From contig CANREL010000004.1 of NCBI GenBank assembly GCA_947629655.1, positions 13,577-77,576 of the forward strand: a DNA stretch of 64,000 bases, in the 5' to 3' direction. Source of the DNA: an uncultured Bacilli bacterium (GTDB lineage: Bacteria; Bacillota_I; Bacilli_A; RF39; UBA660). The notes under the pieces were generated by a model that made no database searches, was not told the DNA's origin, and saw nothing but the letters and a program-made list of their open reading frames with translations. Position 1 is the first letter of the stretch. Every line of letters begins with the position of its first letter. Made by a program: the position numbers and the translations under genes. Shown piece after piece: positions 11,548 through 48,800 of this stretch.

Positions 11548-11796
11548 ATGAGAGATGAAAAATTTACAATCGAGGTCGATGGTAAAATTATTGATTGTGA
11601 AGCTTTTTTAACTTTTACGCATAATGGTGATAATTTTATCGTTTTTACAGATCATGAATTAGATATGGAAAATGAAGAACGATTGATTGCTTCTAAATAC
11701 GTATTGAATGATGGAAAAGTTGTTCTTTTAGGAGAACTTAGTGATGAAGAATACGATTTAGTTGAAAAAGAAATGGAGAAGTTTATCAATGGATAA
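11548..11796 (+). CDS. DUF1292-like small acidic protein
   Basis: An 82-aa protein with the pattern of a short beta-rich N-terminus and an acidic C-terminus (FTIEVDGK...FIVFTDHELD...EEYDLVEKE). Confidence 0.55.
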   Translation: MRDEKFTIEVDGKIIDCEAFLTFTHNGDNFIVFTDHELDMENEERLIASKYVLNDGKVVLLGELSDEEYDLVEKEMEKFING

Positions 11797-27465: not shown

Positions 27466-29100
27466 ATGAAAAGTGATAAGAGAATAATAAAGTTGGGGTT
27501 TTTAATTAGTTTATTCGTGTTGTTTTTTATACCTAGTGCAGTTAAGGCAGAGGTTAATTTCAATATTAAAGGACCAGATTCTGTTACTCCTGGTAGTACT
27601 GTTGAGTATGCCATTGAACTAAAGTCTGATGAAACAGATATGATTAAAGGATTTGAAGCATCTGTCAATTTTGAAAGCAATGTTTTGACTTTAAAAAATA
27701 TCAAATTAGGTTCTGGTTGGAGTGGTAATACCGAAGGAGGTAGCTCTGGTAAAAATGTAAAATTTGAGTCTGAAGTAGGAAATACGGGAACTTTTACAGT
27801 TGCGACGTTAGTATTTAGTGTTAATACTAATGCTACTTCAAATAGTGCCTATGTGACTTTGAAAGATGCTAAATATACAATTAATGAAGCAGCAACTACA
27901 CTATCAGAGAAGACTCATAATATAAAAGTAAAATCTGGTGATAACACTCTAAGCGATTTAAAAGTAAATGGAGCAAGGGTTGAAGGATTTTCACCAACTG
28001 TTTATGAATATGAAATGTCTGTCGGTGGCGATATTGCTACTGCTAAGATAAATGCAACGACAAATTCGACAAAGGCAACTTTTAAATCAGGAAATGGTAA
28101 TAGAACCGTTAACTTGAATTATGGAAGTAATGTCATTAAGGTTGTTGTCATAAGTGAGAGTGGTATTGAAAAGACATATACTTTGAACATCACACGAGAA
28201 GATACTAGAAGTACTGATGCAACTTTGTCTTCTATCACGGTCGATGGCAAAGAAATATCTAATTTTAAGAGTACAACTTATAAATATACTATAAAAAAAT
28301 ATAAAGCGACGTCTGTTAAGATACTTGGAATTCCTGCTGATATGAAAGCGACAGTTAAAGTAGATGGTCCAGCTGAAATGGTTGTTGGAGAAAATACTTA
28401 CACAATTGTCGTTACTTCAGAAAGTGGTGCAACAGCTACATATACAGTAATTATTAACAATATCGATACAGCTATTAATAAAAAGTTAAAGACATTGTCT
28501 GTAAAAGGCTATGACATCGATTTCGATCGCAATAATAATCGTTATGAGATAATGTATAATAAGAGCAAGTTTAAAAAATTGCACATCTATTTCACGACGA
28601 TGGCAGCTAGTGATGAAGTTACAGCGGTTTTATCTCCTGACATCAATAATGATAGTGAAGCTTTGAAAAATTTAAAAGTTGGAGATGAAATAACTATCAC
28701 TGTCACGGGAATCGATGGTGAGAAGTCTGAATATACAATCGTCGTTGTCAAGGATAGTAGAATTAGTTTCTTCTTGGTTTTAGAATTATTTCTCATGGCT
28801 GTCATTGCCATTATCATCTTCATTGTCTTCATGAAGAGAAAAAATGCTAAAAATGGAAAAGGAAAGAATTATAAAACTACTAAAGTAGCTAAAAAAGAAG
28901 AAAAAGAAAAACCTGAAAAAACGACGAGAACGCGTTCCAATAGTGAAAATGCTGTTCCTATCGTTGAAGGGGAAAAACCTAAGAAGAGAAGAAGATTCTC
29001 AATTTATGAAGATGAGTATGAAGAAGTCGAAGTAGAAGTCGATGATGATGAATACTCAACGACAAAAGAGTTGACAGATGAAGAATTAAATTTAAAATAG
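27466..29100 (+). CDS. surface protein: signal peptide, cohesin-like N-domain, cadherin-like beta-sandwich repeats, C-terminal TM anchor and charged tail
   Basis: Signal peptide (VKA/E). Repeats begin DNTLSDLKVNG...YEYEMSV, DATLSSITVDG...YKYTI and KKLKTLSVKG. A TM helix lies near aa 440-465, followed by a K/E-rich tail. It is a paralog of 61700-62731. Confidence 0.6.
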   Translation: MKSDKRIIKLGFLISLFVLFFIPSAVKAEVNFNIKGPDSVTPGSTVEYAIELKSDETDMIKGFEASVNFESNVLTLKNIKLGSGWSGNTEGGSSGKNVKFESEVGNTGTFTVATLVFSVNTNATSNSAYVTLKDAKYTINEAATTLSEKTHNIKVKSGDNTLSDLKVNGARVEGFSPTVYEYEMSVGGDIATAKINATTNSTKATFKSGNGNRTVNLNYGSNVIKVVVISESGIEKTYTLNITREDTRSTDATLSSITVDGKEISNFKSTTYKYTIKKYKATSVKILGIPADMKATVKVDGPAEMVVGENTYTIVVTSESGATATYTVIINNIDTAINKKLKTLSVKGYDIDFDRNNNRYEIMYNKSKFKKLHIYFTTMAASDEVTAVLSPDINNDSEALKNLKVGDEITITVTGIDGEKSEYTIVVVKDSRISFFLVLELFLMAVIAIIIFIVFMKRKNAKNGKGKNYKTTKVAKKEEKEKPEKTTRTRSNSENAVPIVEGEKPKKRRRFSIYEDEYEEVEVEVDDDEYSTTKELTDEELNLK

Positions 29101-30724: not shown

Positions 30725-31447
30725 ATGAAAATAAACGTTAAAGATACAGATGTCAATTACATACAATATGGTAAGGGGAAAGAGTTAATTTTACTCCATG
30801 GATGGGGACAAAATATTGAGATGATGAAACCCCTTGGTGATCGATTAGAAGATAAATATCATATTACGATTATAGATTTACCGGGTTTTGGTGCAAGTGC
30901 TGAACCGGAAAAAGTGTTCACAGTCAGTGATTATTGTGAAGTAGTTGAAGAAATCGTAAAGAAACTGAAGATAAAGAAACCGACCCTGATTGGGCATTCC
31001 TTTGGTGGACGCGTATCGATTGTTTATGCTTCACGAAATGAAATTGATAAGTTGATCTTATTTGGTAGTCCTTGCATTAGAACGGAAGAGAAAGAAAGTC
31101 TCAAACTTAAAACTTTAAAAACTTTGAAGAAAGTTCCAGGACTTAACAAATTTGAGAATTTTGCGAAGAGACATATCGGCAGTAGAGATTATAAAAATGC
31201 CAGTGAAATGATGCGTAAGATTTTGGTTGAAACTGTTAATACCGATTTATCTGAATATGCGAAAAAAATAAAATGTCCAACGTTATTGATGTGGGGCGAT
31301 AATGATTTGGAAGAACCAGTTGAAAGAGCCCGTGAATTGGAAAAAGTTATTGATGATGCAGCACTAATCGTTTTTCCCAATTCGAGTCATTATGCATATT
31401 TAGAGAATATCGATCAAGTCATAAAAATAATAAAAGAATTTGTATAG
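30725..31447 (+). CDS. alpha/beta-fold hydrolase
   Basis: HGWG oxyanion region, GHSFGG nucleophile elbow, and late D and H (SSHYAY). I prefer the ATG at 30725 because the track's TTG at 30680 lies inside the upstream terminator. Confidence 0.75.
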   Translation: MKINVKDTDVNYIQYGKGKELILLHGWGQNIEMMKPLGDRLEDKYHITIIDLPGFGASAEPEKVFTVSDYCEVVEEIVKKLKIKKPTLIGHSFGGRVSIVYASRNEIDKLILFGSPCIRTEEKESLKLKTLKTLKKVPGLNKFENFAKRHIGSRDYKNASEMMRKILVETVNTDLSEYAKKIKCPTLLMWGDNDLEEPVERARELEKVIDDAALIVFPNSSHYAYLENIDQVIKIIKEFV

Positions 31448-31457
31448 GAGTGATTTT

Positions 31458-33071
31458 ATGTTAGTTTGTGCATATATAGTAATGGCGGTTGTTTTCATCT
31501 ATTCAATGATTAAAATGAAAAGAAGTCTACATATGATTCAACAAAATTTATACAATGAGAATAATCGATATTTGAGATGGATCAGTAAGAATAGAAAAGA
31601 GATATATAAAAATCTTGATGTCTATGGAATCGTATTTGTTTTCTGTTATGCATGGTGTTTTAATACTTATGTATCATTCTATTTCTTTGGACTTATCATT
31701 GCTCTTTATTTGATTTCAACTATTATTAATATAAAGAGTAGACAGAATGATCAAAATAAGAAACCATTAGTCATAACAGCTAGAGTTAAGAGATTGATTG
31801 TGACGACAAGTGTTTTGTATTTAATTCCTTGTTTATTAGGAATATTTATCAAATCTAATTTATGCGATTTCATATTTTTATTATCAATTATGGCTGTTTT
31901 AAATTTTTATGTCGTATATCTTGCTTCAGTCATAAATATTCCAATTGAAAAGATGATTTATCATCACTATGAGAAACAAGCTAAAGAAAAGTTAGCAAGT
32001 ATGAAAAATCTCAAAGTTATTGGAATTACGGGAAGTTATGGTAAGACTAGCTGTAAAAATGTCTTAGCTGATGTTTTAAACATTAAATATAATACTTTGG
32101 CATCACCTAAGAGCATAAATACTTTTAATGGTCTAATGATAACAATAAATAATGAATTAACTAAGTTTGATGATTGTTTCATTGCTGAAATGGGGGCTTA
32201 TGTCAAAGGAGAAATAAATGGTTTGTGCAAATTAGTAAATCCTAAATATGGAATAATTACTAGTATTGGAACAGCTCATTTGGAAACTTTTGGTAGTGAA
32301 AAGAACATTCAAGAAGGAAAGATGGAACTTATTGAATATCTACCTAAAGATGGTGTTGGTGTTTTGAATCGTGATGATGAAAAACAAAAAAATTATAAAA
32401 TCAAAAAGAAAGATCATTGTAAGATACTTTGGGTAGGAATTGATAGCAAGGATGAAGTTGATGTCAAAGCACTCAATATAAAGTGTAGTAATGAAGGAAC
32501 TACTTTTGATTGCGTCTTCAAAGGTGATAAGAAAAAGTATCAATTCAAGACTAAACTACTTGGAAAACATAATGTCTATAACATAATTTCAGCGCTAGCT
32601 TTAGGACGTGAGTGGGGAATTGAAATAGATAAATTACAACAAGCAGTTAAAAAGATCAAACCGATTGAACATCGTTTAGAAATAAAAAAATTCAATAATT
32701 TTTATCAATTGGATGATGCATATAATTCTAATCCAGTTGGTGCTAAAGCGGCTTTAGATGTTTTAGATATGATGAATGGTGAAAAAGTTGTCATAACACC
32801 TGGGATGGTGGAACTTGGTGAAAAAGAAGAATACTACAATAGAGAATTTGGTAAACAAATAGCTGAAGTTGCTGATAGAGTAATCTTGGTTGGAGAAAAG
32901 AAGACTAAACCAATTTTACAGGGATTAAAAGATATGAAATTCAATGAGAAAGACATCAAAGTTATAAATGATGTCAGAGAAGCATATACAATTTTGAATA
33001 AGATTAATAGTAAGAAAAACGTTTATGCGCTTTTTGAAAATGATTTACCTGATACATATAATGAAAAGTAG
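31458..33071 (+). CDS. murF: MurF-like Mur ligase with an N-terminal polytopic membrane domain
   Basis: The first ~170 aa contain 4-5 hydrophobic helices. These are followed by GITGSYGKTS, AEMGA, LDDAYNSNP and PGMVELG. The ATG at 31458 follows GGAGTGA. It is located directly upstream of ddl. Confidence 0.8.
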   Translation: MLVCAYIVMAVVFIYSMIKMKRSLHMIQQNLYNENNRYLRWISKNRKEIYKNLDVYGIVFVFCYAWCFNTYVSFYFFGLIIALYLISTIINIKSRQNDQNKKPLVITARVKRLIVTTSVLYLIPCLLGIFIKSNLCDFIFLLSIMAVLNFYVVYLASVINIPIEKMIYHHYEKQAKEKLASMKNLKVIGITGSYGKTSCKNVLADVLNIKYNTLASPKSINTFNGLMITINNELTKFDDCFIAEMGAYVKGEINGLCKLVNPKYGIITSIGTAHLETFGSEKNIQEGKMELIEYLPKDGVGVLNRDDEKQKNYKIKKKDHCKILWVGIDSKDEVDVKALNIKCSNEGTTFDCVFKGDKKKYQFKTKLLGKHNVYNIISALALGREWGIEIDKLQQAVKKIKPIEHRLEIKKFNNFYQLDDAYNSNPVGAKAALDVLDMMNGEKVVITPGMVELGEKEEYYNREFGKQIAEVADRVILVGEKKTKPILQGLKDMKFNEKDIKVINDVREAYTILNKINSKKNVYALFENDLPDTYNEK

Positions 33072-34316: not shown

Positions 34317-35450
34317 TTGGATAACTTTTTTGAATCGGGTTTGGACAGTTTGAGTGATGAAGCTCTTAAATATGTCGGAGTTACTAATCTCGATTTTAGA
34401 ACCCATCTCTCTAAAGATGAATTGTTGGAGGTTCAAAATATAATGTTCTCAATAAATACTTTAATACAGATCACTTTTAAAGATGGAACTTTTGTAAGCG
34501 ATATTGAGAATGTAAAACATTTATTAGAAAATTCACCAATGTGTGATGATAGAAAAATAGAGAAGATCATTCTCAGAAGAAATACATCTGATGAAGTTAA
34601 ACAGATATTGATGATGCCTTATGATAATCCTGATACTTGGAATATTGCTTATGATGTTCACGATGATACTTATATGATAACGACGTTACCCAATTATCGT
34701 CTCATGGAGGAATATATAGGTGTTGTTCTATCTTGTATTAAGGATGACATGAGTCCTTTGGAAAAAATAAAAGAAGTATATGATTTTGTCAAGTTATTGG
34801 AACTTGATGAAAAGGCGAGTAATAGATTTCCTGATATCATAAAAAATAGAGTCACTAACAATTTGGGATTTAATGTTTTATTCAGTGAAATTTTGAAGAG
34901 AATAGGAATTAAATCTTATATTGGGAAGATTCAAAGAGAACAGATGGAATATATCACAATTGTTTCTGTTAAAGATGAAAAGTATGAAGCAGATGGTATA
35001 TATGCATTTGATCCAGTTAGTGATTCAATTCCCAAGCATGCTTATAAAAATGATGCCATGCGTAAAATAAATTATAATTTTTTTGCTCTTTCTTTGAAAA
35101 AGATTGTTTCAACTACTTCTTCGGATAAATTATTAGAACCATTATCCCTATTAACTATTGATTCTTTAGATTTTTCAGAACGTCGAGTTAATGTCAATGA
35201 ACGTAGAAAGTTAGAAGAGATTTTTGATTCAAATTATGAAGAAATATTTAAAATAGTAAATAAAACTAAAGATATAAAAGATGAAAATTTATTAAATTTA
35301 TTCATTTCGACAGTTCATCGTGAAGATTTTATCAATTTGAATAGAGATATTGAAGAATTGATAAGAAACAATTATTATTTACGAAAGAAAGATCTTTTTA
35401 TAAATCTTAAGAAAGATGATATTGAAGATATGAATATTCATGATGTTTAA
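34317..35450 (+). CDS. hypothetical cytoplasmic protein (possible degenerate transglutaminase-like fold)
   Basis: TTG start behind AGGGGGTG. The segment NNLGFNVLFSEILKRIGIKSYIG...EYITIVSV...IYAFDP resembles a GxCxxFA...H...D core spacing, but the Cys and His are absent. Confidence 0.45.
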   Translation: MDNFFESGLDSLSDEALKYVGVTNLDFRTHLSKDELLEVQNIMFSINTLIQITFKDGTFVSDIENVKHLLENSPMCDDRKIEKIILRRNTSDEVKQILMMPYDNPDTWNIAYDVHDDTYMITTLPNYRLMEEYIGVVLSCIKDDMSPLEKIKEVYDFVKLLELDEKASNRFPDIIKNRVTNNLGFNVLFSEILKRIGIKSYIGKIQREQMEYITIVSVKDEKYEADGIYAFDPVSDSIPKHAYKNDAMRKINYNFFALSLKKIVSTTSSDKLLEPLSLLTIDSLDFSERRVNVNERRKLEEIFDSNYEEIFKIVNKTKDIKDENLLNLFISTVHREDFINLNRDIEELIRNNYYLRKKDLFINLKKDDIEDMNIHDV

Positions 35451-35479
35451 AGATTAAATAAGTTTATTTAATCTTTTTA
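35451..35479 (+). terminator. rho-independent terminator
   Basis: 10-bp stem agattaaata/tatttaatct with a 4-nt loop and T5. Confidence 0.75.
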
Positions 35480-35484: not shown

Positions 35485-35513
35485 TTGTTATTTTCAAGAA
35501 GAAATGATATCAT
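35485..35513 (+). promoter_or_regulatory. putative sigma-A promoter of the giant pilin gene
   Basis: TTGTTA, a 17-nt spacer to the TATCAT hexamer (35508-35513), and TG at 35505-35506 giving an extended -10 (TGaTATCAT). It lies ~29 nt upstream of the ATG. Confidence 0.4.
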
Positions 35514-35541
35514 ATAGATAGAATATAATAGGTGGTGCCAT

Positions 35542-38277
35542 ATGAAAAGAACTAATAAAAAGGGATTTACTCTAATGGAAGTAATAGCGGTCATAATAAT
35601 TTTAGGATTATTAATCATGATAGCTGTACCAGCCGTAAATAAACAGTTATCAAATTTTAGAGTAAATTATTATGATAAATTGGAGAGTAGTGCGAAAGCT
35701 GCTGGTGAAGATTATGTCTCAGATAAAAGATATGCGAAACCGACGAAACTTTTGTACTCTAAGGTTATTAAGATTAGTGAATTGGAAGATGAAGGGTATA
35801 TCGATGAAGTAAAAGATTATCTCGGTAATAAATGTGATTCGAAAGATACTTCATACAGTTATGTCGTCGTCGTTAAAACAGGAGAAAAAGAGTATCAATA
35901 TCAAGCATGTTTAAGATGTAGTGAAGATGAATATGCGACAAATACGAATGATAAAAAATATAATTTATGTGATACTGCTTGGTTAAATAATACAGGAATA
36001 GAATATGTTAAACCAGGTATTAGTAGTGATTTGTTATATGTTTATTATGGAACTACAGAACAAGAGATCAAAGAGCAAGTTGGAATAACTTACGATATTG
36101 TAAAAAGAGATCGAAATGGGGAAGTTTTAGCGCAAGTAAAAAACAGTGAAGCTGAAGAAGATGACATTCTATACCCACAAAACATTGGTGAATTAGTAGG
36201 AAAAAATGTCAATAGTATCGTTGAATTGCGTTATGTTTTACCAAATGGTGAGACTTTAACGAGAAGAGCTGTCATTTATAAACACAACGATCCAAAAGTT
36301 ACGATGACATATGGTAATGCCAATACAGTAACTGGTAAAAAAGTTGGCGATAAATATAATAATGGTAGTAATGAATGGGCAAGTAAATTAAATATAAAAA
36401 TTGAATTCTCACCTAGTGATATCAAAGAGATAACTGATAAGATTAACATGAAGACAGCTGAGTATTATGATCCTGCTACTAACAAATGGGTTGATACCAA
36501 TTGTAGTTTGAGTAGTGATAAAAAGAGTTGTACTTGGACGGTTGCTAGTAACTTTAATAAATCAGTCAAGATAAGAGTAGTTAATCAAAATGATCGCCGA
36601 GGTGATGGCATAAAAGAACACTCAATAAAAGTTGATATAACGAAACCGACATGTGCAAGTAACAATGGCAGTACGACGTGGGCAAAATCACGAACTGTCA
36701 CTGAGAGTTGTACAGATAGTGGTGGAAGTGGATGTAATAAAGGAAGTTATGCAATAACTTATCCAACTAGTTCAGTAAAAAATAAGAAAACTGATAACAT
36801 CACGATATATGATAATGCTGGTAATAGTCAAAGTTGTCCTGTCAATATTTATGTTGACTCAACACCACCTTCAAGTTGTGATGTAACATTACATGGTGTA
36901 ACTAATAATGGAACGACTAGTTCAGATATTACAATTGATGTCAAAGGTGTTGATAATGAAACTGATGCTAGTGGAATAAAGAGTGAAACAGTTGATGTCA
37001 AGTTAAATGGAAGTAGCCTTGGTGATATAAGAAATACGAGTGGTAAGAACAATGGTAAATATACAATAGTTGGAACTTGTACTGATAAAGCTGGAAATTC
37101 TAAAACTAGTGCAACGCAAACTTTCACTTTAAGTAAAAAGGTAACGATAAGCTATAGTGCTGGAGTTGGTGGTAGTGGAAGTATGGCTAGTACGACATGT
37201 GGTTATAATGAAAACTGTAACATAAGTGGAAACAGTTTTACTAGAACAGGATATCACTTCACGGGATGGAAAAATGGTAGTGCTAGTTATTTAGCTGGTG
37301 GAACGTATAAATTTACTTCAAATGTTACTTTGACAGCGCAATGGGCACCTAATACTTATACGATCAATTTCAATGGTAATGGTGCTAATGGTGGTGCAAC
37401 GGGAGCTGTTACTTGTACGTATGATCAAAATTGTACTTTGCCAGGAAATGGTTTTTCAAGAACGGGTTATAGATTTATTGGATGGGGTCTATCAACTGGT
37501 GATGGCGTTGTTTATAATAATGGCGCAACTGTTAATAATTTAGTTGCTAGTGGTTCAATTACGTTATATGCAAAATGGTCTGTTTACAAAGTTCACATCC
37601 GTTACAATACGAATGGTGGATCAATTTTGAGCAGTAATGCATCAGGAAGATGGTCAACATCTGGTAACAATGTTTATTTGAATGGTGCTTTATATGAAGA
37701 GACAATTGATTATGGTAGTAGAATGGGAAGTTCTGGTCTATCTAACTGGAATAATAGTGGATACATATACATAACACGCCCAAGTTATACAGCAGTACCT
37801 GGTCAAGAATGGGTATGTAATAGTGGATGTTCTTCCGTTGGTAGAAAGTTTAGTCAAGATGTCGTTTATAGTGCTAGTGACTTCTGTAATGCTGCTAATG
37901 GTGATTGTACAGTAACAGTGGGCGTTAACTGGCAAGTTGCCTGTGGACCAGTTTATTTGAGTGCTGTTTCAACTGGTGGTAACAATGGTGGTTACTGTTG
38001 GAATAACTGCATGGGTAAGAGTTGTCAAGATTATCGCATAACATTCTCAATTTCAGGATGTAATAGTGGCATGTATGGTCATGTCTGCTACTACAATCCA
38101 GCTGGTTACGGAATTAGTTGTAATGTCTTCCAAGCTACTTATCCAACTCATAACAGTGGATATGGTGTCGTTTGCTTCAACTCATCTACTAACTGGACAT
38201 ATGATAGATCAACTGAATGGGGATATGGTTATGTTTGTAATCAAGCTAACCAATGTGCTGAGAAAATAGCTCCATAG
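35542..38277 (+). CDS. giant (911 aa) type IV pilin-like protein with Ig-like modules, Listeria-Bacteroides-type repeats and a Cys-rich C-terminus
   Basis: Prepilin N-terminus MKRTNKKG/FTLMEVIAVIIILGLLIMIAVPAV (Gly-1, Glu+5). Mid-region has DxAGN-type Ig modules. The repeats FTRTGYHFTGWKNG and FSRTGYRFIGWGL are followed by a C-terminal ~130 aa with many Cys. Confidence 0.75.
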   Translation: MKRTNKKGFTLMEVIAVIIILGLLIMIAVPAVNKQLSNFRVNYYDKLESSAKAAGEDYVSDKRYAKPTKLLYSKVIKISELEDEGYIDEVKDYLGNKCDSKDTSYSYVVVVKTGEKEYQYQACLRCSEDEYATNTNDKKYNLCDTAWLNNTGIEYVKPGISSDLLYVYYGTTEQEIKEQVGITYDIVKRDRNGEVLAQVKNSEAEEDDILYPQNIGELVGKNVNSIVELRYVLPNGETLTRRAVIYKHNDPKVTMTYGNANTVTGKKVGDKYNNGSNEWASKLNIKIEFSPSDIKEITDKINMKTAEYYDPATNKWVDTNCSLSSDKKSCTWTVASNFNKSVKIRVVNQNDRRGDGIKEHSIKVDITKPTCASNNGSTTWAKSRTVTESCTDSGGSGCNKGSYAITYPTSSVKNKKTDNITIYDNAGNSQSCPVNIYVDSTPPSSCDVTLHGVTNNGTTSSDITIDVKGVDNETDASGIKSETVDVKLNGSSLGDIRNTSGKNNGKYTIVGTCTDKAGNSKTSATQTFTLSKKVTISYSAGVGGSGSMASTTCGYNENCNISGNSFTRTGYHFTGWKNGSASYLAGGTYKFTSNVTLTAQWAPNTYTINFNGNGANGGATGAVTCTYDQNCTLPGNGFSRTGYRFIGWGLSTGDGVVYNNGATVNNLVASGSITLYAKWSVYKVHIRYNTNGGSILSSNASGRWSTSGNNVYLNGALYEETIDYGSRMGSSGLSNWNNSGYIYITRPSYTAVPGQEWVCNSGCSSVGRKFSQDVVYSASDFCNAANGDCTVTVGVNWQVACGPVYLSAVSTGGNNGGYCWNNCMGKSCQDYRITFSISGCNSGMYGHVCYYNPAGYGISCNVFQATYPTHNSGYGVVCFNSSTNWTYDRSTEWGYGYVCNQANQCAEKIAP

Positions 38278-38294
38278 TTAGAAAGGAAATTATT

Positions 38295-39122
38295 ATGAAA
38301 AAGAAAAACACAAAGAAAATTAAAAAGAATAATTCAAAAAAAGTTTTAATCGCATTTTCAATAATAGTGATGTTATCTATCATAACTTTGGCTCTATTTC
38401 TCATAAATAGCGACAATAAAAAATATAAGAGTAATAGAGAAGTAGTCGAAAATGTCATCAAAGATGTTTTCTTAACAGAAAATACTTCTCAAAAGAAAAT
38501 AGAAAATTATTTTGGTAATCAAACTGTAAAAGTATTTGTAGCAATGGGAGAGGATAGTTACTTGCGATATATCCCTCCAACTTTTACAGAAAAGAATGCT
38601 GACTACATGAAGTATGAAACTACTCAGAAAAAATATGCCGAAAAAGTAGAAGAAAAAATCTTGAACAACACGAGTTATGTCATAAGTGAGTATGAGGAAA
38701 ATGACAATTTGCAATTTAGGATAACCCCATGGTATTTTGCCCAATATTCCAGTGATTTGTCATATTTGAAAAATAAATTGTTAGAATTGAGTAATATTGA
38801 TCCAGAATTGGTTAATACTAATTATGATAAATATAGTTTTTATGAATATAAAGCTCGTGTTAAAGCTATGGAAATAATGGACAGATATTTAGATAATTAT
38901 GATAATAAAGATGAATCATTAGATTTTACTTTCTATTATGAAAATGGTGAACCCGCTGTTAATCAATATTTGAGTTTATATTTCAATTTAATTGGTATTA
39001 CATCAAAATACAATGTCAATAGTGATGAAAAAATAAAAGAACAAGTGACGAGAGTAGATAAATATTTAGATGAGGCAATTGATAAAAAAATAGTTGATAA
39101 AGATAATGCTTTAGCACTTTAG
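38295..39122 (+). CDS. N-terminally anchored hypothetical protein, tandem paralog 1
   Basis: K-rich N-terminus and one TM helix. It shares long blocks with the next gene (for example TPWYFAQYSSDLSYLKNKLLE...YEYKARVKAM). Confidence 0.6.
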   Translation: MKKKNTKKIKKNNSKKVLIAFSIIVMLSIITLALFLINSDNKKYKSNREVVENVIKDVFLTENTSQKKIENYFGNQTVKVFVAMGEDSYLRYIPPTFTEKNADYMKYETTQKKYAEKVEEKILNNTSYVISEYEENDNLQFRITPWYFAQYSSDLSYLKNKLLELSNIDPELVNTNYDKYSFYEYKARVKAMEIMDRYLDNYDNKDESLDFTFYYENGEPAVNQYLSLYFNLIGITSKYNVNSDEKIKEQVTRVDKYLDEAIDKKIVDKDNALAL

Positions 39123-39135
39123 AAAGAAGATAATT

Positions 39136-39975
39136 ATGAATAAAAAGAGAATAATTGGATTAGTAATAATGGTGTTGGGAAGTATTTGTATATTGAGTTC
39201 TGTTTTCATGATGGTGATCAATTTTTCAAAAGATGACAATACTCCAAAAGATAATGATGAAAGTAATGAAGAAACAACAGAATCAAAACATACTAAAGAA
39301 GTGAAAGAAAATATTGAAAACATCTTTTTAAACGATGATACATCTAGTGATAAAATTGAAGAAATAACAGGTAAAGAAGTGCGTTTTGACTATGTCGTTT
39401 TAGGTAGTGATAGCTATCTTCGCAGTAGACCTACGAGTGAAGTCATCGCTAGTGAAAAACTTGATGATTATGTCACTAAACAAGATGAATATGCTAAAAA
39501 AGTGGAAAAAAATTATAGAGATAATACTGAATATGTCATCGTTGAAGGTGATGATAAAAATTTGAATTTTCAAGTTACACCATGGTATTTCGCTCTATAT
39601 TCTAGTGATTTATCCAGTTTAAAAAATAAATTATTAGAGATGGCTAATGTCGATTTGAGTTTAATTGATACTGATTATTCTAAATATTCTATTTATGAAT
39701 ATAAAGCTCGCGTTAAAGCAATGATAATTTTAGATAGTTATTTAAATAATTATAAAAATGATAATGAAAATATTGATTTCGTATTCTATTACGAAAATGA
39801 TAAACCAGCACCTGATCAATATCTCAACTTGTATTATAATTTAATCGGTTCTACTTCTAAGTACATGACTAATAATGAAGAACAATTAAAAGTACAAGTT
39901 ACAAGAGTAAATGATTATCTCAATCAAGCTATTGAAAATGGTTTAATTGATAAAAATGATGTTTTAGGATTGTAG
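39136..39975 (+). CDS. N-terminally anchored hypothetical protein, tandem paralog 2
   Basis: Same architecture as 38295-39122. A 63-aa block is 44/63 identical by my hand alignment. Confidence 0.6.
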   Translation: MNKKRIIGLVIMVLGSICILSSVFMMVINFSKDDNTPKDNDESNEETTESKHTKEVKENIENIFLNDDTSSDKIEEITGKEVRFDYVVLGSDSYLRSRPTSEVIASEKLDDYVTKQDEYAKKVEKNYRDNTEYVIVEGDDKNLNFQVTPWYFALYSSDLSSLKNKLLEMANVDLSLIDTDYSKYSIYEYKARVKAMIILDSYLNNYKNDNENIDFVFYYENDKPAPDQYLNLYYNLIGSTSKYMTNNEEQLKVQVTRVNDYLNQAIENGLIDKNDVLGL

Positions 39976-39982
39976 TTTTTTT

Positions 39983-40006
39983 AAGAGAATTTTTATTCTC
40001 TTTTTC
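39983..40006 (+). terminator. rho-independent terminator
   Basis: Hairpin aagagaat/tttt/attctctt followed by a T-run. Confidence 0.7.
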
Positions 40007-40029
40007 TTATTTTAAAATATCTATTACTA

Positions 40030-40038
40030 TGTTATAAT
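40030..40038 (+). promoter_or_regulatory. putative extended -10 element of the tad operon
   Basis: TGtTATAAT lies 31 nt upstream of the ATG at 40070. The RBS GGAAGG lies between them. Confidence 0.4.
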
Positions 40039-40069
40039 TATATTGATAATAATAGGAAGGGTTGATTTG

Positions 40070-40426
40070 ATGAAAAATAAGCAAAGTGGTCAAGCATTAA
40101 TAGAATTTGTCATTATTTTACCAGTTGTGATCTTGCTTATTTTTTCTTTTGTAGATTTGGGTAGAATTGTTTTAGAAAATAATAGATTAGAGAATTTAAC
40201 TACGAGTGTTATTGAAAAATATAATGAGACTAAAAAATATGATGATGTCATTTCTTATATCGATTCATTAGGATATGAAAAAGTTGATTTATCTATTTCT
40301 GCACATGATGATATGTTGACGATTAAACTCACTGAAAAAATTGACTTAGTTACGCCAGGACTTTCAAAAATCATGGGTGATCCTTATAAAGTTGAAGTAG
40401 AGAGAGTTGTTAAATATGAAAAATGA
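40070..40426 (+). CDS. TadE-like pseudopilin
   Basis: N-terminus MKNKQSGQALIEFVIILPVVILLIF matches the TadE-type hydrophobic segment (G/xxxxE[FY]). I prefer the ATG at 40070 over the track start at 40043. Confidence 0.65.
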   Translation: MKNKQSGQALIEFVIILPVVILLIFSFVDLGRIVLENNRLENLTTSVIEKYNETKKYDDVISYIDSLGYEKVDLSISAHDDMLTIKLTEKIDLVTPGLSKIMGDPYKVEVERVVKYEK

Positions 40427-41192
40427 AAAAGGTCAAGTATTAGTTCTTTTCATAATGATTTTACCACTTCTATTATTAGGAGGAGCGTGTATCGTTGATT
40501 CTTCTTATATGTTATATCAAAAAAATCGTTTAGATAATATAAATCGTGATGTTTTGAATAGTGTCAATAATAGTTCTTCTTTGAGTGAAGAAGTAATTGA
40601 TGAAATAATTAGAGAAAATGATGCGAAAATTGTCAATGATGAGATATCGATTGATGAGAAAATTGTGATTAAAAATCATGTGATGGTCGATAGCCTATTT
40701 GGAAAGATAATAGGTATTGATAAATATAGAGTCAATTCAGAAGTCAGTGTAAAAGCTAAGAGATTGATATTAGATATCGATAGTTTAAAGAATATTGATA
40801 ATACTGGTAATTATTCAGTTATCAATAATAATGTCATTTATGATGGAGGATTAGTTTTTAAAGATTCTGATTTGGTGATTAATAATTTTAATATGAATGG
40901 TGACTTTGAGATAAATATTTCTTTTTCATTTGAAAAAAATGGTAATTTATTAGAATTCAATAATCTTTTGATAAATATTAGTAATGATGAATTATTCATA
41001 AATGGAAAAAGAGTTACTAGTTTAAAAATTGGTGAAAAATATGATTTAGTCATAACTAAAGATCGAGTTGTATTAAATGGTGATAGTTCAGTATCTTCTA
41101 ATGATATTGACAATTATTCTGGTGATTTGATCATTGGTAAGGGATTCAGTGGAAAAATAGAATTCATAAAAATATATAATATTGGAAATTAG
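40416..41192 (+). CDS. TadG/TadF-like pseudopilin with a C-terminal LamG-like (concanavalin-type) domain
   Basis: N-terminus MKNEKGQVLVLFIMILPLLLLGGACIVD. The C-terminus ends LIIGKGFSGKIEFIKIYN, which resembles the F-x-G-x-I-D-E-V-R-I-Y-N signature of LamG-like domains. Confidence 0.5.
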   Translation: MKNEKGQVLVLFIMILPLLLLGGACIVDSSYMLYQKNRLDNINRDVLNSVNNSSSLSEEVIDEIIRENDAKIVNDEISIDEKIVIKNHVMVDSLFGKIIGIDKYRVNSEVSVKAKRLILDIDSLKNIDNTGNYSVINNNVIYDGGLVFKDSDLVINNFNMNGDFEINISFSFEKNGNLLEFNNLLINISNDELFINGKRVTSLKIGEKYDLVITKDRVVLNGDSSVSSNDIDNYSGDLIIGKGFSGKIEFIKIYNIGN

Positions 41193-41200
41193 GTGAAAAT

Positions 41201-41974
41201 ATGGAAAGTAAAAAAGGTAAAATTCTTACGATTACATCAATGAAGGGTGGAGTTGGAAAAACGATGGTGACGATGCTTCTAGCTAATGTTTTTTCGAAAT
41301 GTGGTAAAAAAGTATTAGTTGTCGATTTGGATTTATACAATGGTAATTTAGCTTTTGCTTATAAAACTAGAGTAAAAAGTTCTATCTATAATTTGTGTGA
41401 TGACATAGCTAATAATCGTTTAGTCAATGGAATAACATCTGAATACGTTTCAAAGATAAGTGATAATTTATACTTTATCGCGGCACCTAAGGATCCACGT
41501 CAAGCTAATAAGATTGATAATAAATATCTCGATAGCATTTTGAAATCATTATCTTTTTTATACGATGTCATTTTAATCGATACTAATCATATATTAAGTG
41601 TTTCTAACATGGTCGCTTTTGAAAACAGTTATAAGATTGTTGACCTTGTCACCAATGACAGCTTTGATTTACAGAGTACGAAGAGTTTTGTGGCCATCTG
41701 TAAGAACATGGGTGTTGACAATTTAGTTTTGATGTTAAATAACGCCATTGATTCACGAAGAGGTTACTATACGACTTATGACATGAAAAATATTACGAAG
41801 AAGAATATTGATTATACAATTCCAAGCGCTTTCTATTTAAAGAATTTTGATCAGTTGGTAATGGATGGTAAGATTGGTTTCTTTGATGAATATTTAAAGG
41901 GTGAAGCTAAAAAGAGTTTGGAAGATTTTGCTGGTCACATGTTAAGTCTCATTGATGATGGAGGTAAGGAATAA
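41201..41974 (+). CDS. TadZ/CpaE-like ParA/MinD-family ATPase
   Basis: Deviant Walker A motif SMKGGVGKT and a DTNH Walker B-like motif. It sits immediately upstream of the CpaF ATPase. Confidence 0.7.
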   Translation: MESKKGKILTITSMKGGVGKTMVTMLLANVFSKCGKKVLVVDLDLYNGNLAFAYKTRVKSSIYNLCDDIANNRLVNGITSEYVSKISDNLYFIAAPKDPRQANKIDNKYLDSILKSLSFLYDVILIDTNHILSVSNMVAFENSYKIVDLVTNDSFDLQSTKSFVAICKNMGVDNLVLMLNNAIDSRRGYYTTYDMKNITKKNIDYTIPSAFYLKNFDQLVMDGKIGFFDEYLKGEAKKSLEDFAGHMLSLIDDGGKE

Positions 41975-43359
41975 TGAAGAAATCTAGTTGGTTAGAAGAA
42001 TTTGATGTAGTTGATCTATCTCCTAAAGTTGATACTCATGAATCTGATTATGAAGTGTTTGAAGATAAGAAGTTACTCGACAATTTTAGAAATAGTATCA
42101 TTCAGGAATTGATCGATAGTAATATAAGTGATAATAGTAATTTATCACAATACATAAATGAAGAAATAGACCGCATTACTGATGGATATGATTTGAGTGG
42201 TCAAGAGAGAAATTATCTTTTGAATTTGATTGAAAATGAAGTTAATGGTTATGGACCAATTACGGAGCTTTTGGATGATAAAAACGTTACAGAAATAATG
42301 ATAAATGGTCCAGATGAAATATATATTGAAGTCGATGGTGTTCTATCACGTGATAAAAGTGTTTCTTTTATCAATGCTGATCACATCATTCGAACTGTTC
42401 AAAGAATAATTCAACCCCTTGGTAGAACGATAGATTCCGCAAGTCCGATGGTCGATTCGCGACTTCCTGACGGTTCAAGAATTAATGCGATCATTCCACC
42501 ATTGTCTGTCAAAGGACCAGTGGTGACAATTCGTAAATTTAAAGATGATATCGACAATATCGATTCTCTAATTGGTAATGGAACACTAACACCTTATATG
42601 GCTAGATTTTTAGATGCCTGTGTCGATGCACGATTAAATATTTTGGTCTGTGGTGGTACTGGTAGTGGTAAGACGACACTTCTAAACGTCTTATCAAACT
42701 TTATCGGTAATGAAGAGAGAATAATCACGATTGAGGATGCTGTCGAATTGCGATTAAAACAAGATCATGTCATTTCACTTGAGACTAAAAGTACTAACTA
42801 TGATCAAGAAGGCGAAGTGACAATTCGTGATTTGGTCAGAAACTCATTACGTATGCGACCTGACCGCATAATTGTTGGTGAAGTTCGTGGTAAAGAAGCA
42901 TTTGATATGCTTCAAGCGATGAATACTGGTCATGATGGAAGTTTGACTACGTTGCATGCCAATGGTTGTAGAGACGCTTTAAATAGACTTGAAACGATGA
43001 TTTTAATGGGTGAGTTGGAACTTCCTATCAAAGCTATCCGCGGTTATATAGAAAGCGCAATTGATATCGTCATATCAGTTGAAAGATTGAGTGATGGTAA
43101 GAGAAAAGTTACATCAATATCAGAAATTGTCGGTTTTGATGGGGAAAACATTCAATTAAAAGAAATATTTGGTTTTATTAAACATGGATTGACGGAAAGT
43201 AAAGAGGTAAATGGAGAATTCATCCTATACGATTACGTTCCAGAAGTTTATGAAAAGATTAAGAGTCGTGGTATTAATACCATTGATGACATGTTTGTAA
43301 AAGAGGAAAAAAAGAAAAAAAGTTCAGTTAAAAAAACAACAAAAAAGACTAAAAAGTAG
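41974..43359 (+). CDS. tadA: Tad/Cpa secretion ATPase (TadA/CpaF family)
   Basis: Motifs VTEIMINGPDEIYIE, GGTGSGKTTLLN, RPDRIIVGEVRGKEAFDMLQAMNTGHDGSLTTLHAN. It ends in a K-rich C-terminal tail. Confidence 0.9.
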   Translation: MKKSSWLEEFDVVDLSPKVDTHESDYEVFEDKKLLDNFRNSIIQELIDSNISDNSNLSQYINEEIDRITDGYDLSGQERNYLLNLIENEVNGYGPITELLDDKNVTEIMINGPDEIYIEVDGVLSRDKSVSFINADHIIRTVQRIIQPLGRTIDSASPMVDSRLPDGSRINAIIPPLSVKGPVVTIRKFKDDIDNIDSLIGNGTLTPYMARFLDACVDARLNILVCGGTGSGKTTLLNVLSNFIGNEERIITIEDAVELRLKQDHVISLETKSTNYDQEGEVTIRDLVRNSLRMRPDRIIVGEVRGKEAFDMLQAMNTGHDGSLTTLHANGCRDALNRLETMILMGELELPIKAIRGYIESAIDIVISVERLSDGKRKVTSISEIVGFDGENIQLKEIFGFIKHGLTESKEVNGEFILYDYVPEVYEKIKSRGINTIDDMFVKEEKKKKSSVKKTTKKTKK

Positions 43360-43370
43360 GAAGTGATAAA

Positions 43371-44387
43371 ATGGATACAGCACTTGATATAATCATTTTT
43401 ATAATTCAAGTGATAACAGGATTTGTACTGTTGTACATCGCTTATCGTCTATTCAGATTTTATCGAACAGTAGGGTTTGATAAGCGCTTTGGACCTTATT
43501 CTGTCGAATTGTTAGAAGATGATAGTGAATCGTTTTTTGACATGGTCAGTTATTATTATGACAAAGTACAAAATTATCTTTCAAAGTCTTTGATAAAAAT
43601 AAAAATATTTGATAGTTATAGTAAAAAATATGAAAAGTATAGTTATGGAAAAAGAGTTAATGCGATAGATGATATGAATTATATATCGAAAAAGATATTC
43701 ATTGGTTTACTATGTGTATTTCTACTATTATTCTCTTGTATTTTTAGATATGTACACGTAAGTTTACTATCGATTTTATTAGCTTTCTTAGTAGGTTTTT
43801 TTGCTCTTGATGTCTATTTGATAATTTATGATAGAATGCGAAAAAACAGTATTGAAAAAGATATTAATAAAGCGGTCATCATCATGAATAATGCCTTTAA
43901 ATCAGGTTATAGTATCATGCAGGCAATATACCTTGTCCATACACAAATGGATGGGGCGATAAGTGAAGAATTTAGAAAGATGTACATCGATATTACTTTT
44001 GGGTTGAACATGGAAGTAGTCTTTAATCGTTTCGCTGATCGCGTTGATTGTGTTGAAGCTCGCTACATGGCTACATCTTTAGGTGTTGTCAATAGGACTG
44101 GTGGAAATATCATTCAAGTTTTTGATGCCGTTGAAAGAAATGCTACGACGAGGCAACGATTGAAAGAAGAACTTAGCAGTGTTTCAGCATCGGCTCGTGC
44201 TATGTTTAAGATTTTGGTATGCATTCCAATATTCATAATTGGTATTCTATTGATTTTAAATCCTACTTATTTTGCACCACTATTCAAAACACCAATAGGT
44301 ATTTTGTGTTTGTTATTGAGTGTGATCATATATGTTTTATACATCATCATCATTAGAAAAATTATATATGTGGAGGTTGATTTATGA
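43371..44387 (+). CDS. tadB: TadB-like platform protein (T2SS-F domain)
   Basis: Polytopic protein with a GspF-like cytoplasmic domain (MNNAFKSGYSIMQAIYLV...EEFRKMYIDITFGLNMEVVFNRFADRV). Confidence 0.75.
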   Translation: MDTALDIIIFIIQVITGFVLLYIAYRLFRFYRTVGFDKRFGPYSVELLEDDSESFFDMVSYYYDKVQNYLSKSLIKIKIFDSYSKKYEKYSYGKRVNAIDDMNYISKKIFIGLLCVFLLLFSCIFRYVHVSLLSILLAFLVGFFALDVYLIIYDRMRKNSIEKDINKAVIIMNNAFKSGYSIMQAIYLVHTQMDGAISEEFRKMYIDITFGLNMEVVFNRFADRVDCVEARYMATSLGVVNRTGGNIIQVFDAVERNATTRQRLKEELSSVSASARAMFKILVCIPIFIIGILLILNPTYFAPLFKTPIGILCLLLSVIIYVLYIIIIRKIIYVEVDL

Positions 44388-45097
44388 AAAAGGTAAAGAA
44401 TAAGAAAAGAACTCTTTCACGTAGTATTTTTTCTAAGAGACAAATCGATAGAATTCAAAGAAAAATCGATTTATTAGGTGAAAATAGTAAATTTGATGCG
44501 ATTTTCTTCTTAAATTTGCGCTTTATTTCTTCCATAGTTCTATTTTTAGTGGTATTATATGTATTTGAGTTGGGGTACTTCTTAGCACCACTAATCACGT
44601 TTATTTACTATTATTTAATTTACTATCTTTTAATTGAATACAATATAAATAAGAGATGTGATAAATTAGATGTTGAAGCGATGTATTTTTTTGAAGTTAT
44701 GACTTTGGCATTAGAATCTGGTAATAATTTAAAAAATGCTTTAGATATGACTTGTAGTAATGTGGACAATGAATTGTCTAGAGAATTTCGTAAAGCTCTT
44801 GATGAAGTTGATTACGGAAAGAGTTTGAATGAAGCTTTAGAGAGTTTGAAGCTTAGAATACCTTCGGATACAATTAACAATATTATTTTGAATATCATGC
44901 AATCTAATATTTTTGGTAATAATATAACTAATGATATGTACAATCAATTGGATTACATTAGAGATAGAGAAATTCAAAAAGCTAAGAGTAGAATTAGTAA
45001 AATACCTCTATACGTATCAGTCATTTCAGTCGTATTTTATGTACCTTTGATAATGTTGTTGATTTTATCACCAGTTATAATAGAATTTTTAAGTTAG
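44384..45097 (+). CDS. tadC: TadC-like platform protein (T2SS-F domain)
   Basis: Overlaps tadB by 4 nt. It has a GspF-like domain (LALESGNNLKNALDMT...REFRKALDEVDYGKSLNEALESL). Confidence 0.7.
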   Translation: MKKVKNKKRTLSRSIFSKRQIDRIQRKIDLLGENSKFDAIFFLNLRFISSIVLFLVVLYVFELGYFLAPLITFIYYYLIYYLLIEYNINKRCDKLDVEAMYFFEVMTLALESGNNLKNALDMTCSNVDNELSREFRKALDEVDYGKSLNEALESLKLRIPSDTINNIILNIMQSNIFGNNITNDMYNQLDYIRDREIQKAKSRISKIPLYVSVISVVFYVPLIMLLILSPVIIEFLS

Positions 45098-45877: not shown

Positions 45878-48800
45878 ATGAGCTATATAAAATCTTTTGA
45901 TGAAGAAGAATTTGAATCTTTAAAAGAGTATTGTCAAAAATATAGTTCTCAATATGGACTCAGTGCTCATGTCATGGAGTTATTAGATGAGAATGGACTT
46001 TATTATTTGAATAAATTTGTCAATGATGATGAAGATTTTGATGAACGTGATTTTGATACTTTAATAAGAGCTTTCTTTGATGGTTTTGATTTTTATTATG
46101 ATCGTTTAGATGATAATTATTTATTAGCGGCTAAAGAAAAATTAGAAGAGACTTTTTCATTCTTTGAAGATAGTCATTTAGATGATGAACACAAAAGTGA
46201 AATTGTCGATAATTTTTTTGAAATACTATCGAGTTATACGCGTGAAGAGTTGAGTGATAGTAAAGCTTTATACTATTTATTGACTTCTGATGTTTTTAGA
46301 AGGAGCAACATGGTTAAAGAATATTTGTACAATTCTTATAATTCGGTTGCTACTAGTAAAGAAAAGTTGGTCTTTTTTGTCAAAAATCTATATGATTTAT
46401 TGAACAAATTACCATATGAAGATGCTCACAAAGTCGATTATATATTTTTGAGTAGTTCTGATGCCTTCACTTATTTTTTAGATGTACCTGAAGAGATGAA
46501 TATCTTTTTTAATGAGAGAATTTTATCAAAATTTGGAAAAGAGACCTTGAGCTTTCTATTCAGAATGTCAGATTATTCTGTCTTCAGCAGTTTTTGTAGA
46601 TCTGATGATAAGTTTTTGTCTGTCGTAGCAGCTATGAATGAATACGTATTAAAAAAATATAATAAAAATTCTTATTTCTTTGATGGAGTTTTTAAATTTT
46701 TTAACAGATTTGAGAAAAAAGATATTAGAGCTAGAAAAATAATCATTGATCTATTCTCTGAATATTATGACAAATATTTTGAAGAAAGTAAAAAGAATGG
46801 TTTTGAAAACGATGAGATTTTTAATAATTTATTGGGATTAATTCTGCAACATCGTGATGTAATATATTTTTTGAATGAAAAAAATATTGAAAATTTAGAT
46901 GATTTCTTTAAAGCGACGAGAGAGAAAATAGATGAATTACACACGACTATATTTGGTAAGGAAGGTTTGGTCAAGTTTAAATATGGTGTCTTTGATCCAA
47001 AAAAAGATTTTCCACCTTTTGAGATGCGAGTACAGGGACTACACGATTTGAAAAATGCTTTCTTGCAAAGAGTTTATGGAATAACTTATGAAGATGCCTT
47101 TTATATCGCGTCAAAATATGGAACTTTTATCGAGCTATGTCAAGATGAAATAGCGGATGAAGATCGTGATGTTTATGAGATAGTTAAGACGATAACCGAT
47201 GTCGCTAATATGATTGATTACAATGGTAATAAAATAAATAATATTAGATTAGCTGCCCATGAATTTATTAAGAATAAGGGACTTTATAATTATAATAATG
47301 GGTCTTGTTATCCGATTCTATTATCATTGATTAATCGCATGTACATGCATGCATATAATGATTGTGTCTTTAAAGTTGATGAAAATTCTAAAGTTTTATA
47401 TCGTCAAAGAAAAGTTCCTGTAATTGATGCAGGAGTTAATTTCAACATGATTGTAAGTTCTATCAATGCTGTTGATGAGTTTTATACCAGTCGTGATAAC
47501 ATGATGGAGAAGTACAACATATCGAGTCGTTCCAATAATCAAGGAATTTGTGCAAGTTTTATCAATAATGAAAGTTTAGGAGTCATATCTTTACGCCAAC
47601 CATTAATTGGGTATGCCAATTTAGCTGATGACAGTTTGGATGCGATGGGAGTTGGTGATATATATTCCAAAACGATTGATTTAGATTTGTTGAGAGCTAA
47701 TTCTACAACTGGTGAGGGAAATTATTTCTTCACTCCTAAAAAATATATCGATTATACAAGATTTGGATATAACGAAATGGTCGTTGATCGCTTTTTGGTC
47801 AAAGATGATGACGATGCGATAAAAGTTCAACCGAGTTACATAGTTGTCTATAAAATAGATGACAATTATAAAAAGACTAGAATGTATAAAAAAGGAATAA
47901 GAATGGCTAGAGATTTTGGTGTTCCACTAGTCTTAGTTGACGTTCCAAAAGTTAAAGAAAATGAACGTGATATCATTCTTCAAAAAGAAAAAGAATTATT
48001 CAAAAGTAGTAAAGTCGATAAGGAATTATTAAATGAAATAGTAACGCGTTATATGAATAATTACAGTGGATCTTTAACGATTATGCGAAGTCGAAATCGC
48101 CGTGGAAATGAATGGCACTATCCAAAGGATTTCTCTGTGCGTGGTTTGACGAGATTTTTAGATAAAGTGGCTCGAAAGTTTGAAGATTTTGATGAAGCAC
48201 AAATAGAAGAGTGGAGTCAAGCTTTGAACGAAGTTTATAATTTAGAAAAAGAAAAGAACAAAATGGCTTTACAAATAAATGATTATGAGGATTCATTGAG
48301 TGGTGGAGAATTTTTACTCGATGATAAGATCATGTTTTCAGAATTTGTTCAAAATATCAAAGATCGCAATATCAATCGTCTTCTTCTCAGAAAGGGCATG
48401 TTTGATCAAGATAAATATTTACACATACCAGATGTCAAAGTACCAAGTGATGTCCAATTGATTGTCGATTTAGCAAACTTATTGTGTAAGAGTAAAGTTT
48501 ATGCCAATGTCAGTGGTCACAATGGGGAAAATATTTATCAGACGAAGAAGACTTATGATTATAGTGAAGAAGAAAAAAATGCTTATGGTCTCGTAATTTC
48601 TTATTTACTTGGGGACTATAGTACTAATTATTTTGCTAATCTCGATACTTGTGATATTACAAATATCAAAATTGATGAAAATATCCAACGCGTTGAGAGG
48701 TGCCTAGATGGCAATGATGCTTTTTCTAATCAGAATATCGATACAGAATTGTTATTAAAAGTTGCTACAGATATTGAAGATCTACCAACGGCAATCTTTT

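Follow-up and report, generated by a model that had tools for sequence, protein, structure and literature searches.

Modular pilins, in which domains unrelated to pili are grafted onto a small pilin, are defined as a concept by the minor pilins PilB and PilC of Streptococcus sanguinis, which carry a vWA module and a lectin module, respectively, and of which PilB mediates adhesion (PMC8179133; PMC9934059). A survey of the class counts 1,219 proteins in 264 architectures, the longest cited in its text having 860 residues, and its Dataset S1 contains proteins in which IPR012902 is followed by two (9 proteins), three (2), five (1) or one (1) copies of IPR013378, the "Internalin B-like, B-repeat", together with four mixed architectures (Raynaud et al., 2021; PMC8179133). 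The present analysis concerns a gene of 911 codons in a 64,000-nucleotide stretch of an uncultured Bacilli bacterium (contig CANREL010000004.1, positions 13,577 to 77,576; the whole stretch is hereafter called the window, and positions are counted from its first letter). The product starts as a type IV prepilin and continues for about 770 residues beyond its pilin module. It carries PF07963 and two PF09479 repeats, and so belongs to the modular pilins as defined by IPR012902/PF07963 plus at least one non-pilus domain; since the architecture IPR012902-IPR013378x2 is already catalogued, the protein extends a known class. The protein, with its 911 residues, and related prepilins, the longest of which reaches 2,043 amino acids (aa), exceed the 860 residues cited in the text of that survey. 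The reading favoured here, with moderate confidence, takes the product for a minor type IV pilin of the modular kind, which would act as an adhesin exposed on a type IV filament.

Like PilB and PilC, the protein comes from a monoderm host and combines a canonical class III signal with a small pilin module and grafted non-pilus domains that have a demonstrated or predicted part in adhesion. It differs from them in being about twice as long, in having at least seven passenger domains instead of one, with neither a vWA nor a lectin module, in its location outside a pil operon, and in its sequence family, a separate one with a conserved core of 533 aa and a putative function. The experimentally studied modular pilins each carry, to our knowledge, a single extra module. 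CofB of the type IVb pili of enterotoxigenic Escherichia coli and GspK of type II secretion, both discussed as large minor pilins (PMC8179133), are proteins of diderm bacteria encoded in the operons of their machines, and the resemblance to them is limited to the N-terminal half of the first helix (alpha1-N). The family described here retains Glu5, which GspK lacks. InlB B-repeats commonly mark large surface adhesins of Gram-positive bacteria, and Listeria InlB and the Finegoldia magna aggregation adhesins FMG_0048/0049 share the repeat family PF09479/IPR013378 with the 911-aa protein, but are equipped with Sec signal peptides and wall-anchoring domains in place of its prepilin N-terminus. Structurally, the immunoglobulin (Ig)-like stalk is matched best by the BIg domains of Salmonella SiiE, but the likeness is one of domain fold only; SiiE is a substrate of type I secretion and has 53 repeats. 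Flp pilins and TadE/TadF/TadG share Gly-1 and Glu+5 with the protein, and its gene lies near a Tad-like locus. By contrast, Flp and TadE of this clade bear the signal G/QALVE[YF] (the slash marks the cleavage site) and measure 63-130 aa, against G/FTLME and 911 aa, and the linkage between the two is not conserved. In the literature searched, no paper linking PF09479 with PF07963 was found, nor one devoted to this family, and co-mentions of "Listeria-Bacteroides repeat" and "pilin" are incidental.

The prepilin N-terminus and the pilin module

The open reading frame (ORF) is intact in the window copy, in DNA of 30% G+C. A search of 5.8 billion sequences returns 44 relatives, 40 of them with prepilin N-termini, and the closest eleven (740-1219 aa) are colinear with the protein over aa 1-533 at 42-59% identity. 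By this comparison a chance origin of the ORF is excluded, because a frame of such length and base composition has these relatives. An earlier note on this DNA, made without database searches, had described a 911-aa protein with a prepilin N-terminus, and both pertinent family models bear it out: Pfam N_methyl (PF07963) matches aa 4-28 with 24.6 bits (gathering cut-off 21.2) and NCBIfam TIGR02532 (IV_pilin_GFxxxE) scores 25.4 bits (cut-off 16.3).

The predicted mature N-terminus is FTLMEVIAVIIILGLLIMIAVP, with F1, E5, G14 and P22 in mature numbering; it has a run of about 21 hydrophobic residues, in which G14 and P22 are the helix breakers known from T4a pilins. Among 20 aligned relatives Glu5 (precursor E13) is invariant, and Gly-1, Gly14 (G22) and Pro22 (P30) are at least 90% conserved. 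In type IVa (T4a) pilins, Glu5, Gly14, Pro22 and Gly-1 matter for filament assembly and not for membrane anchoring. As judged from the alignment, the 911-aa protein is endowed with the residues for type IV filament packing, beyond what mere membrane insertion requires. One close homolog (P0011, locus L001, 10001-13177) has Ala for Gly at position -1 (NRKA/YTLIE), which is unusual in prepilins. The family profile also matches the alpha1-N of solved pilins, namely Geobacter PilA-N (1e-9) and S. sanguinis PilE1 (8pfb_G, 8.6e-7).

AlphaFold2, run on a 20-sequence alignment, predicts the alpha1 helix over aa 11-61 (51 residues) and a beta sheet after it, where the earlier note had seen a pilin-like head. 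When aa 1-250 are modelled on their own, the mean predicted local distance difference test (pLDDT) score is 83. The near-invariant cysteines of the module are C98, C123-x2-C126 and C143 (window 35833-35970). Two disulfides or a tetra-Cys metal site are conceivable for these four residues, the host being apparently an anaerobic gut Firmicute.

Membership in the neighbouring protein classes is not found. The NCBIfam equivalog models for ComGC, ComGD and ComGE align with the N-terminal ~34 residues only, at 12-25 bits against cut-offs of 49-75. The signal G/FTLMEV, the length of 911 aa and the lack of a Pfam TadE or Flp match set the protein apart from Flp and TadE. It is not a sortase-anchored adhesin either, as the LPxT[GA] motif is absent from its sequence and its sole hydrophobic stretch is at aa 14-29.

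The stalk and the distal domains

Beyond the pilin module, the earlier note had recognized Ig-like modules with D-x-AGN motifs, at least two Listeria-Bacteroides repeats and a Cys-rich C-terminal region of about 130 aa, all of which are recovered. The AlphaFold2 model is confident for aa 10-680, in blocks with pLDDT of 70-95, and the domain boundaries in Table 1 are the authors' reading of the predicted secondary structure. Over aa 250-533, where two such motifs occur, the model consists of all-beta domains with pLDDT above 90. In a Foldseek search of the full model against the PDB, tandem Ig arrays rank on top, with the SiiE BIg domains first (2.5e-9), then GhpA and complement MG domains; at the sequence level the family profile matches SiiE over aa 454-539 (E 7e-6). 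The Pfam matches in this region (Big_3_2, Big_13, DUF7743) are all sub-threshold.

The two B-repeats that follow are recognized by Pfam Flg_new (PF09479) in two stretches, with 59 bits against a cut-off of 27, and by TIGR02543 with 28.4 bits against 20.95. Their motifs, FTRTGYHFTGW and FSRTGYRFIGW, lie at aa 566 and 638, respectively, and over aa 611-685 the family profile aligns with 2y5p, a structure of the InlB B-repeat.

The distal 230 residues (aa 682-911) have a pLDDT below 50 throughout, because the alignment contains no relatives in this part. An exhaustive HMMER search with aa 682-911 as query against 1.84 billion representatives gives hits in 381 proteins, 253 of them at E<=1e-10; with few exceptions these proteins match aa 683-798 only, in 1-6 copies each. 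The consensus of this ~115-aa domain keeps the B-repeat frame V-I-Y..NGG ... GY ... EW ... VNW, to which a long insertion and a DFC..DC pair are added. Sequence searches of Pfam and the PDB with the distal 230 aa are empty, so that no Pfam model covers aa 682-798, and the domain is a candidate new family. Of its 149 best representatives, 80 start with the prepilin signature GFTL[VI]E (430-2043 aa, median 957), which points to a link between this passenger domain and pilin N-termini; most of the remainder have Sec-type signals or transmembrane (TM) anchors.

Twelve of the 30 cysteines of the protein fall within its final 130 aa. For the tail itself (aa 799-911), neither a word-index search nor the exhaustive HMMER search finds a credible relative except a 99%-identical copy from the same species (P0065), the other match being one compositional repeat hit, and no Pfam or PDB sequence match is found.

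A conserved core with variable distal ends

The block shared with the closest eleven relatives (P0001-P0011) ends at aa ~530-533 in each of them. Distal to it these proteins have from one to at least five B-repeats, the counts being lower bounds as they come from a weak two-sequence hidden Markov model, and tails of 16-540 aa, the one of P0007 with thrombospondin-type repeats in it. The passenger thus proves to be modular and variable among orthologs, a question that the earlier note had raised. A kept core of 533 aa with swapped distal repeats and tips suggests, from these alignments, a diversifying adhesin repertoire.

Three close homologs are named "InlB B-repeat-containing protein [Bacilli bacterium]" at NCBI, and one related locus comes from a Bacilli metagenome-assembled genome of sheep ileum. 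Sporulation genes such as spo0A and spoIIGA-sigE occur at the loci of several relatives. Homologs follow sigE or spo0A, adjoin tRNA synthetase genes or, in one case, have conjugation-like neighbours, and a genome may have several paralogs, such as three within 16.5 kb (L008) or a tandem pair (L092). The conjugation-like case is a 1532-aa homolog (P0013; L002, 1-9901) directly downstream of genes for a TraC-like protein, a VirB4/TraG-type P-loop ATPase and a glucosaminidase; given these neighbours, some family members may ride on mobile elements or serve mating-pair contact.

Variation is also present within the species. A contig from ENA sample ERZ27249610 (L091), which corresponds to window positions 35889-40957, is 99.6% identical at 3x coverage. 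It carries a G-to-A change at 37343 that converts Trp601 into a stop codon, and 15 of its 21 mismatches are crowded into 40 nt (window 36585-36624), a patch for which gene conversion from a paralog is possible.

Genomic setting

The gene is followed by two small tandem paralogs, p275 and p279, for which neither Pfam nor NCBIfam gives a match, and the three genes are bounded by terminator-like hairpins (Table 1). The left hairpin has a folding free energy of -8.7 kcal/mol (z -4.35), and none of 200 shuffled sequences is as stable; it was missed by a consensus terminator scan because its stem is AT-rich. In the closest syntenic relative of the region (L012), the order is murF (70% identity), ddl (79%), the 377-aa gene (49%) and tadE, with no cassette between the last two. 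There the stop codon of the 377-aa gene is directly followed by AAGAGA-TTTA-TTCTCTT and then T8, a hairpin homologous to the one found 3' of p279 in the window. Because the L012-type hairpin follows p279, while a different hairpin follows the 377-aa gene of the window, comparison of the two loci identifies the genes at 35542-39975 as an inserted cassette, with the ancestral terminator on its downstream side, and as a predicted transcription unit of its own.

A p275 homolog (286 aa, E 1e-18; L001, 13190-14050) is located directly after the giant-pilin homolog P0011. The p279 family is represented by only two other clusters among the 5.8 billion sequences, one of which is again a tandem pair (L096/L097). 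Other giant-pilin homologs also precede small, N-terminally TM-anchored proteins, which show no detectable homology to p275 or p279. The small TM-anchored proteins that follow giant pilins may form a class of accessory or partner proteins.

Downstream of the cassette lies a Tad-like operon, preceded by a promoter-like TTTAAA-16-TATAAT with TG extension ahead of tadE. The best NCBIfam match of its TadA-family ATPase is TIGR03819, with 313 bits (below the cut-off of 373), as compared with 72 bits for ComGA and 52 for PilB. The order tadE-tadG-tadZ-tadA-tadB-tadC(-yebC) is kept in 27 related Tad loci, with ATPases 60-74% identical, none of which has a giant-pilin homolog beside it. In eight related loci (L011, L013, L015, L016, L017, L025, L027 and L031) a gene for a 63-85-aa Flp with the signal KG/QALVEY directly precedes tadE, and the TadE signal of this clade is G/QALVEF. 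The G/FTLME-type signature is also present on small and large orphan pilins, for instance on a 117-aa pilin encoded directly upstream of the L003 homolog. An flp major-pilin gene is absent from the Tad-like operon both in the window and in L012; the major pilin of the Tad-like machine of the window is thus unaccounted for. Inclusion of the giant gene in the downstream Tad-like operon was considered and rejected as the principal interpretation, on account of the 27 loci, the Flp/TadE signal and the flanking hairpins, and the adjacent Tad-like pilus locus, as far as gene order and signals indicate, is probably not the partner of the giant prepilin.

Table 1. Features of the giant prepilin gene, its cassette and the downstream Tad-like operon (window positions; aa numbering of the precursor)
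Feature	Position	Strand	Basis or remark
Terminator-like hairpin and U-run	35449-35476	+	directly 3' of the stop codon of the upstream 377-aa gene; left edge of the cassette
Promoter-like TTGTTA-17-TATCAT with TG extension	35485-35513	+	consensus scan only; shuffled sequence matches about equally often; weak
Shine-Dalgarno-like AGGTGGTG	35530-35537	+	direct reading; ATG 4 nt further on
Modular prepilin gene, 911 aa	35542-38277	+	ORF list; ATG start; Pfam and NCBIfam matches; homologs
Short, basic class III leader peptide MKRTNKKG (aa 1-8)	35542-35565	+	PF07963, TIGR02532, Gly8 conservation; predicted cleavage after Gly8
Pilin module (aa 9-144)	35566-35973	+	hydrophobic alpha1-N FTLMEVIAVIIILGLLIMIAVPAV, helix to aa 61, small beta sheet, four near-invariant Cys
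Alpha/beta domain (aa 145-248)	35974-36285	+	conserved within the family; no family assignment
Three Ig-like modules (aa 249-365, 366-443, 444-533)	36286-37140	+	last two ending in DNAGN (aa 424) and DKAGN (aa 515)
Two Listeria-Bacteroides/InlB B-repeats (aa 534-603, 604-681)	37141-37584	+	PF09479, TIGR02543, PDB profile
Long B-repeat-like domain of ~115 aa (aa 682-798)	37585-37935	+	HMMER; no Pfam model; AlphaFold2 confidence <50
Cys-rich C-terminal tail (aa 799-911), putative ligand-binding tip	37936-38274	+	10 Cys; function putative
p275 (275 aa), first tandem paralog	38295-39122	+	one N-terminal TM segment; 47.9% identical to p279
p279, second tandem paralog	39136-39975	+	one N-terminal TM segment; 47.9% identical to p275
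Terminator-like hairpin AAGAGAAU-UUUU-AUUCUCUU	39983-40002, through U-run 40012	+	after p279; right edge of the cassette; -7.2 kcal/mol, z -3.0
TadE-like	40043-40426	+	true start probably ATG at 40070
TadG-like	40407-41192	+	next after TadE-like
tadZ/tadA/tadB/tadC-like genes	Tad-like operon 40043-45097	+	ParA/TadZ-like ATPase, TadA-family ATPase, two single-domain T2SSF proteins; yebC comes next

Possible roles: filament, wall stalk or Tad substrate

As a minor pilin, the protein would be cut after Gly8 by a prepilin peptidase of the PilD/ComC type, whose gene would lie outside the window; the 8-residue leader would be lost, and the mature Phe1 would probably be methylated. The hydrophobic alpha1-N, with F1, E5, G14 and P22, would serve first as a membrane anchor and then dock into a filament of the T4a/Com kind, most likely at or near the tip, a position made plausible by the ~770-residue passenger. 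In the latter, one alpha/beta domain would be followed by three Ig-like modules, two InlB-type B-repeats and a single long B-repeat-like domain to give a rod that keeps the orphan Cys-rich terminal domain off the cell surface for ligand binding, that is, as an adhesin. The gene would move as a three-gene cassette together with the genes of the two paralogous membrane-anchored proteins. Several observations weigh against this account. Pfam scans of the window's non-overlapping ORFs, 53 with a length of 100 aa or more, find neither an A24 prepilin peptidase nor a machine of the PilB/PilC/ComG type, and a regular-expression scan finds class-III-like N-termini on the 911-aa protein and TadE only. 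Homologs are dispersed among housekeeping genes and not grouped in pilus operons, ligand binding is ascribed purely by inference to distal residues of low model confidence, and the stop at codon 601 in the same-species contig, albeit at 3x coverage, means that the gene may be dispensable. At the locus of a distant relative (L094), the genes for a PilC-like T2SSF protein and an A24 prepilin peptidase are neighbours, at a distance of 5 kb from the giant-pilin gene, which shows that Firmicutes of this sort can possess PilD/PilC-type components. The earlier note's proposal of an adhesin delivered by a pilus machine accordingly holds in part: the sequence fits a pilin with adhesin-like passenger modules, while the window supplies no peptidase or matching machine and the Tad neighbour is no conserved or co-transcribed partner. 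Scattered orphan genes with several paralogs per genome, no cognate machine nearby, no LPXTG motif and a ~115-aa passenger domain that in about 45% of representatives occurs behind ordinary Sec signal peptides or TM anchors would also suit a cell-surface stalk that never polymerizes, in which the pilin-type N-terminus, cleaved or not, is an anchor and export signal only, and the ~770-residue rod spans the Gram-positive wall, displays the tip and substitutes for sortase anchoring. Such a stalk would have no need of the conserved Glu5, Gly14 and Pro22, and characterized modular pilins do enter filaments (PMC8179133), so that this explanation is considered unlikely.

The position of the gene, on the same strand and 1.8 kb upstream of tadE-tadG-tadZ-tadA-tadB-tadC, raises the further idea that the Tad-like (type IVc) machine next to it uses the product as a substrate, either as a giant minor pilin or as an adhesin at the tip of the Tad pilus, perhaps to compensate for the absence of flp from the window. 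Gly-1 and Glu+5 are common to both signal types, which makes cross-processing conceivable, and other GFTLxE pilins are found 1-2 kb from Tad loci in L015, L031 and L034; in L015 and L031, however, an opposite-strand gene separates the pilin from the Tad operon. No homolog adjoins any of the 27 related Tad loci, and the cassette as a whole is missing from the syntenic L012. Between cassette and tadE there is a terminator-like hairpin as well as a promoter-like site, the Tad pilins of the clade bear the distinct G/QALVE[YF], and the ATPase is TadA/VirB11-like, not PilB/ComGA-like; together these points make a Tad substrate quite improbable. The nonsense codon and the 40-nt patch of the same-species contig, together with the insertion of the cassette relative to L012, could finally be taken as signs of a decaying gene, a remnant of a mobile cassette without a working protein. 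Since the window copy has all 911 codons and a good ribosome-binding site, the core is conserved in full-length relatives at the identities given above, and the variant contig has such low coverage, decay is very improbable.

Other features of the window

Seven further ORFs of the window have no significant Pfam match (45878-48958, 53730-57098, 57111-60092, 51211-52503, 49059-49877, 10289-11491 and 11762-13063), among them proteins of 1026, 1122 and 993 aa. Other probable surface proteins are encoded at 20565-22130, 26048-27454, 27466-29100 and 61700-62731; one has an Ig-like domain and a transglutaminase-like core, one has three Ig-like domains and a polysaccharide deacetylase, and two combine cohesin and cadherin-like domains. 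The MurF-like ligase at 31440-33071 has an N-terminal extension of ~190 aa that resembles a multi-pass membrane domain and precedes the Mur ligase domains, and the same is seen in L012.

Significance

Modular pilins account for the gain of new binding functions by simple type IV filaments. The family described here takes this design further, with a conserved pilin-plus-stalk chassis of 533 aa, interchangeable repeats and tips, and multiple paralogs per genome in uncultured gut or rumen Firmicutes; the ~115-aa domain without a Pfam model is common to this chassis and at least 80 other giant prepilin clusters. Current concepts are left unchanged, and it is the scale and diversity of a described class that are extended. 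A wider proposal, which we regard as somewhat unlikely, is that in uncultured gut Bacilli the N-terminus of type IV pilins serves generally as a handle by which rapidly shuffled giant adhesins are displayed, comprising hundreds of clusters with members of up to ~2,000 aa, in orphan cassettes each with a small membrane-anchored partner protein. If this were true, one filament machine, or even no filament, could present many alternative giant tips and functionally replace the sortase-anchored adhesins in this lineage. If the proteins do sit on pili, they would be candidate factors for the attachment of these uncultured organisms to host, mucin, fibre or other cells, and their repertoire would include a new binding domain in the form of the orphan Cys-rich tip.

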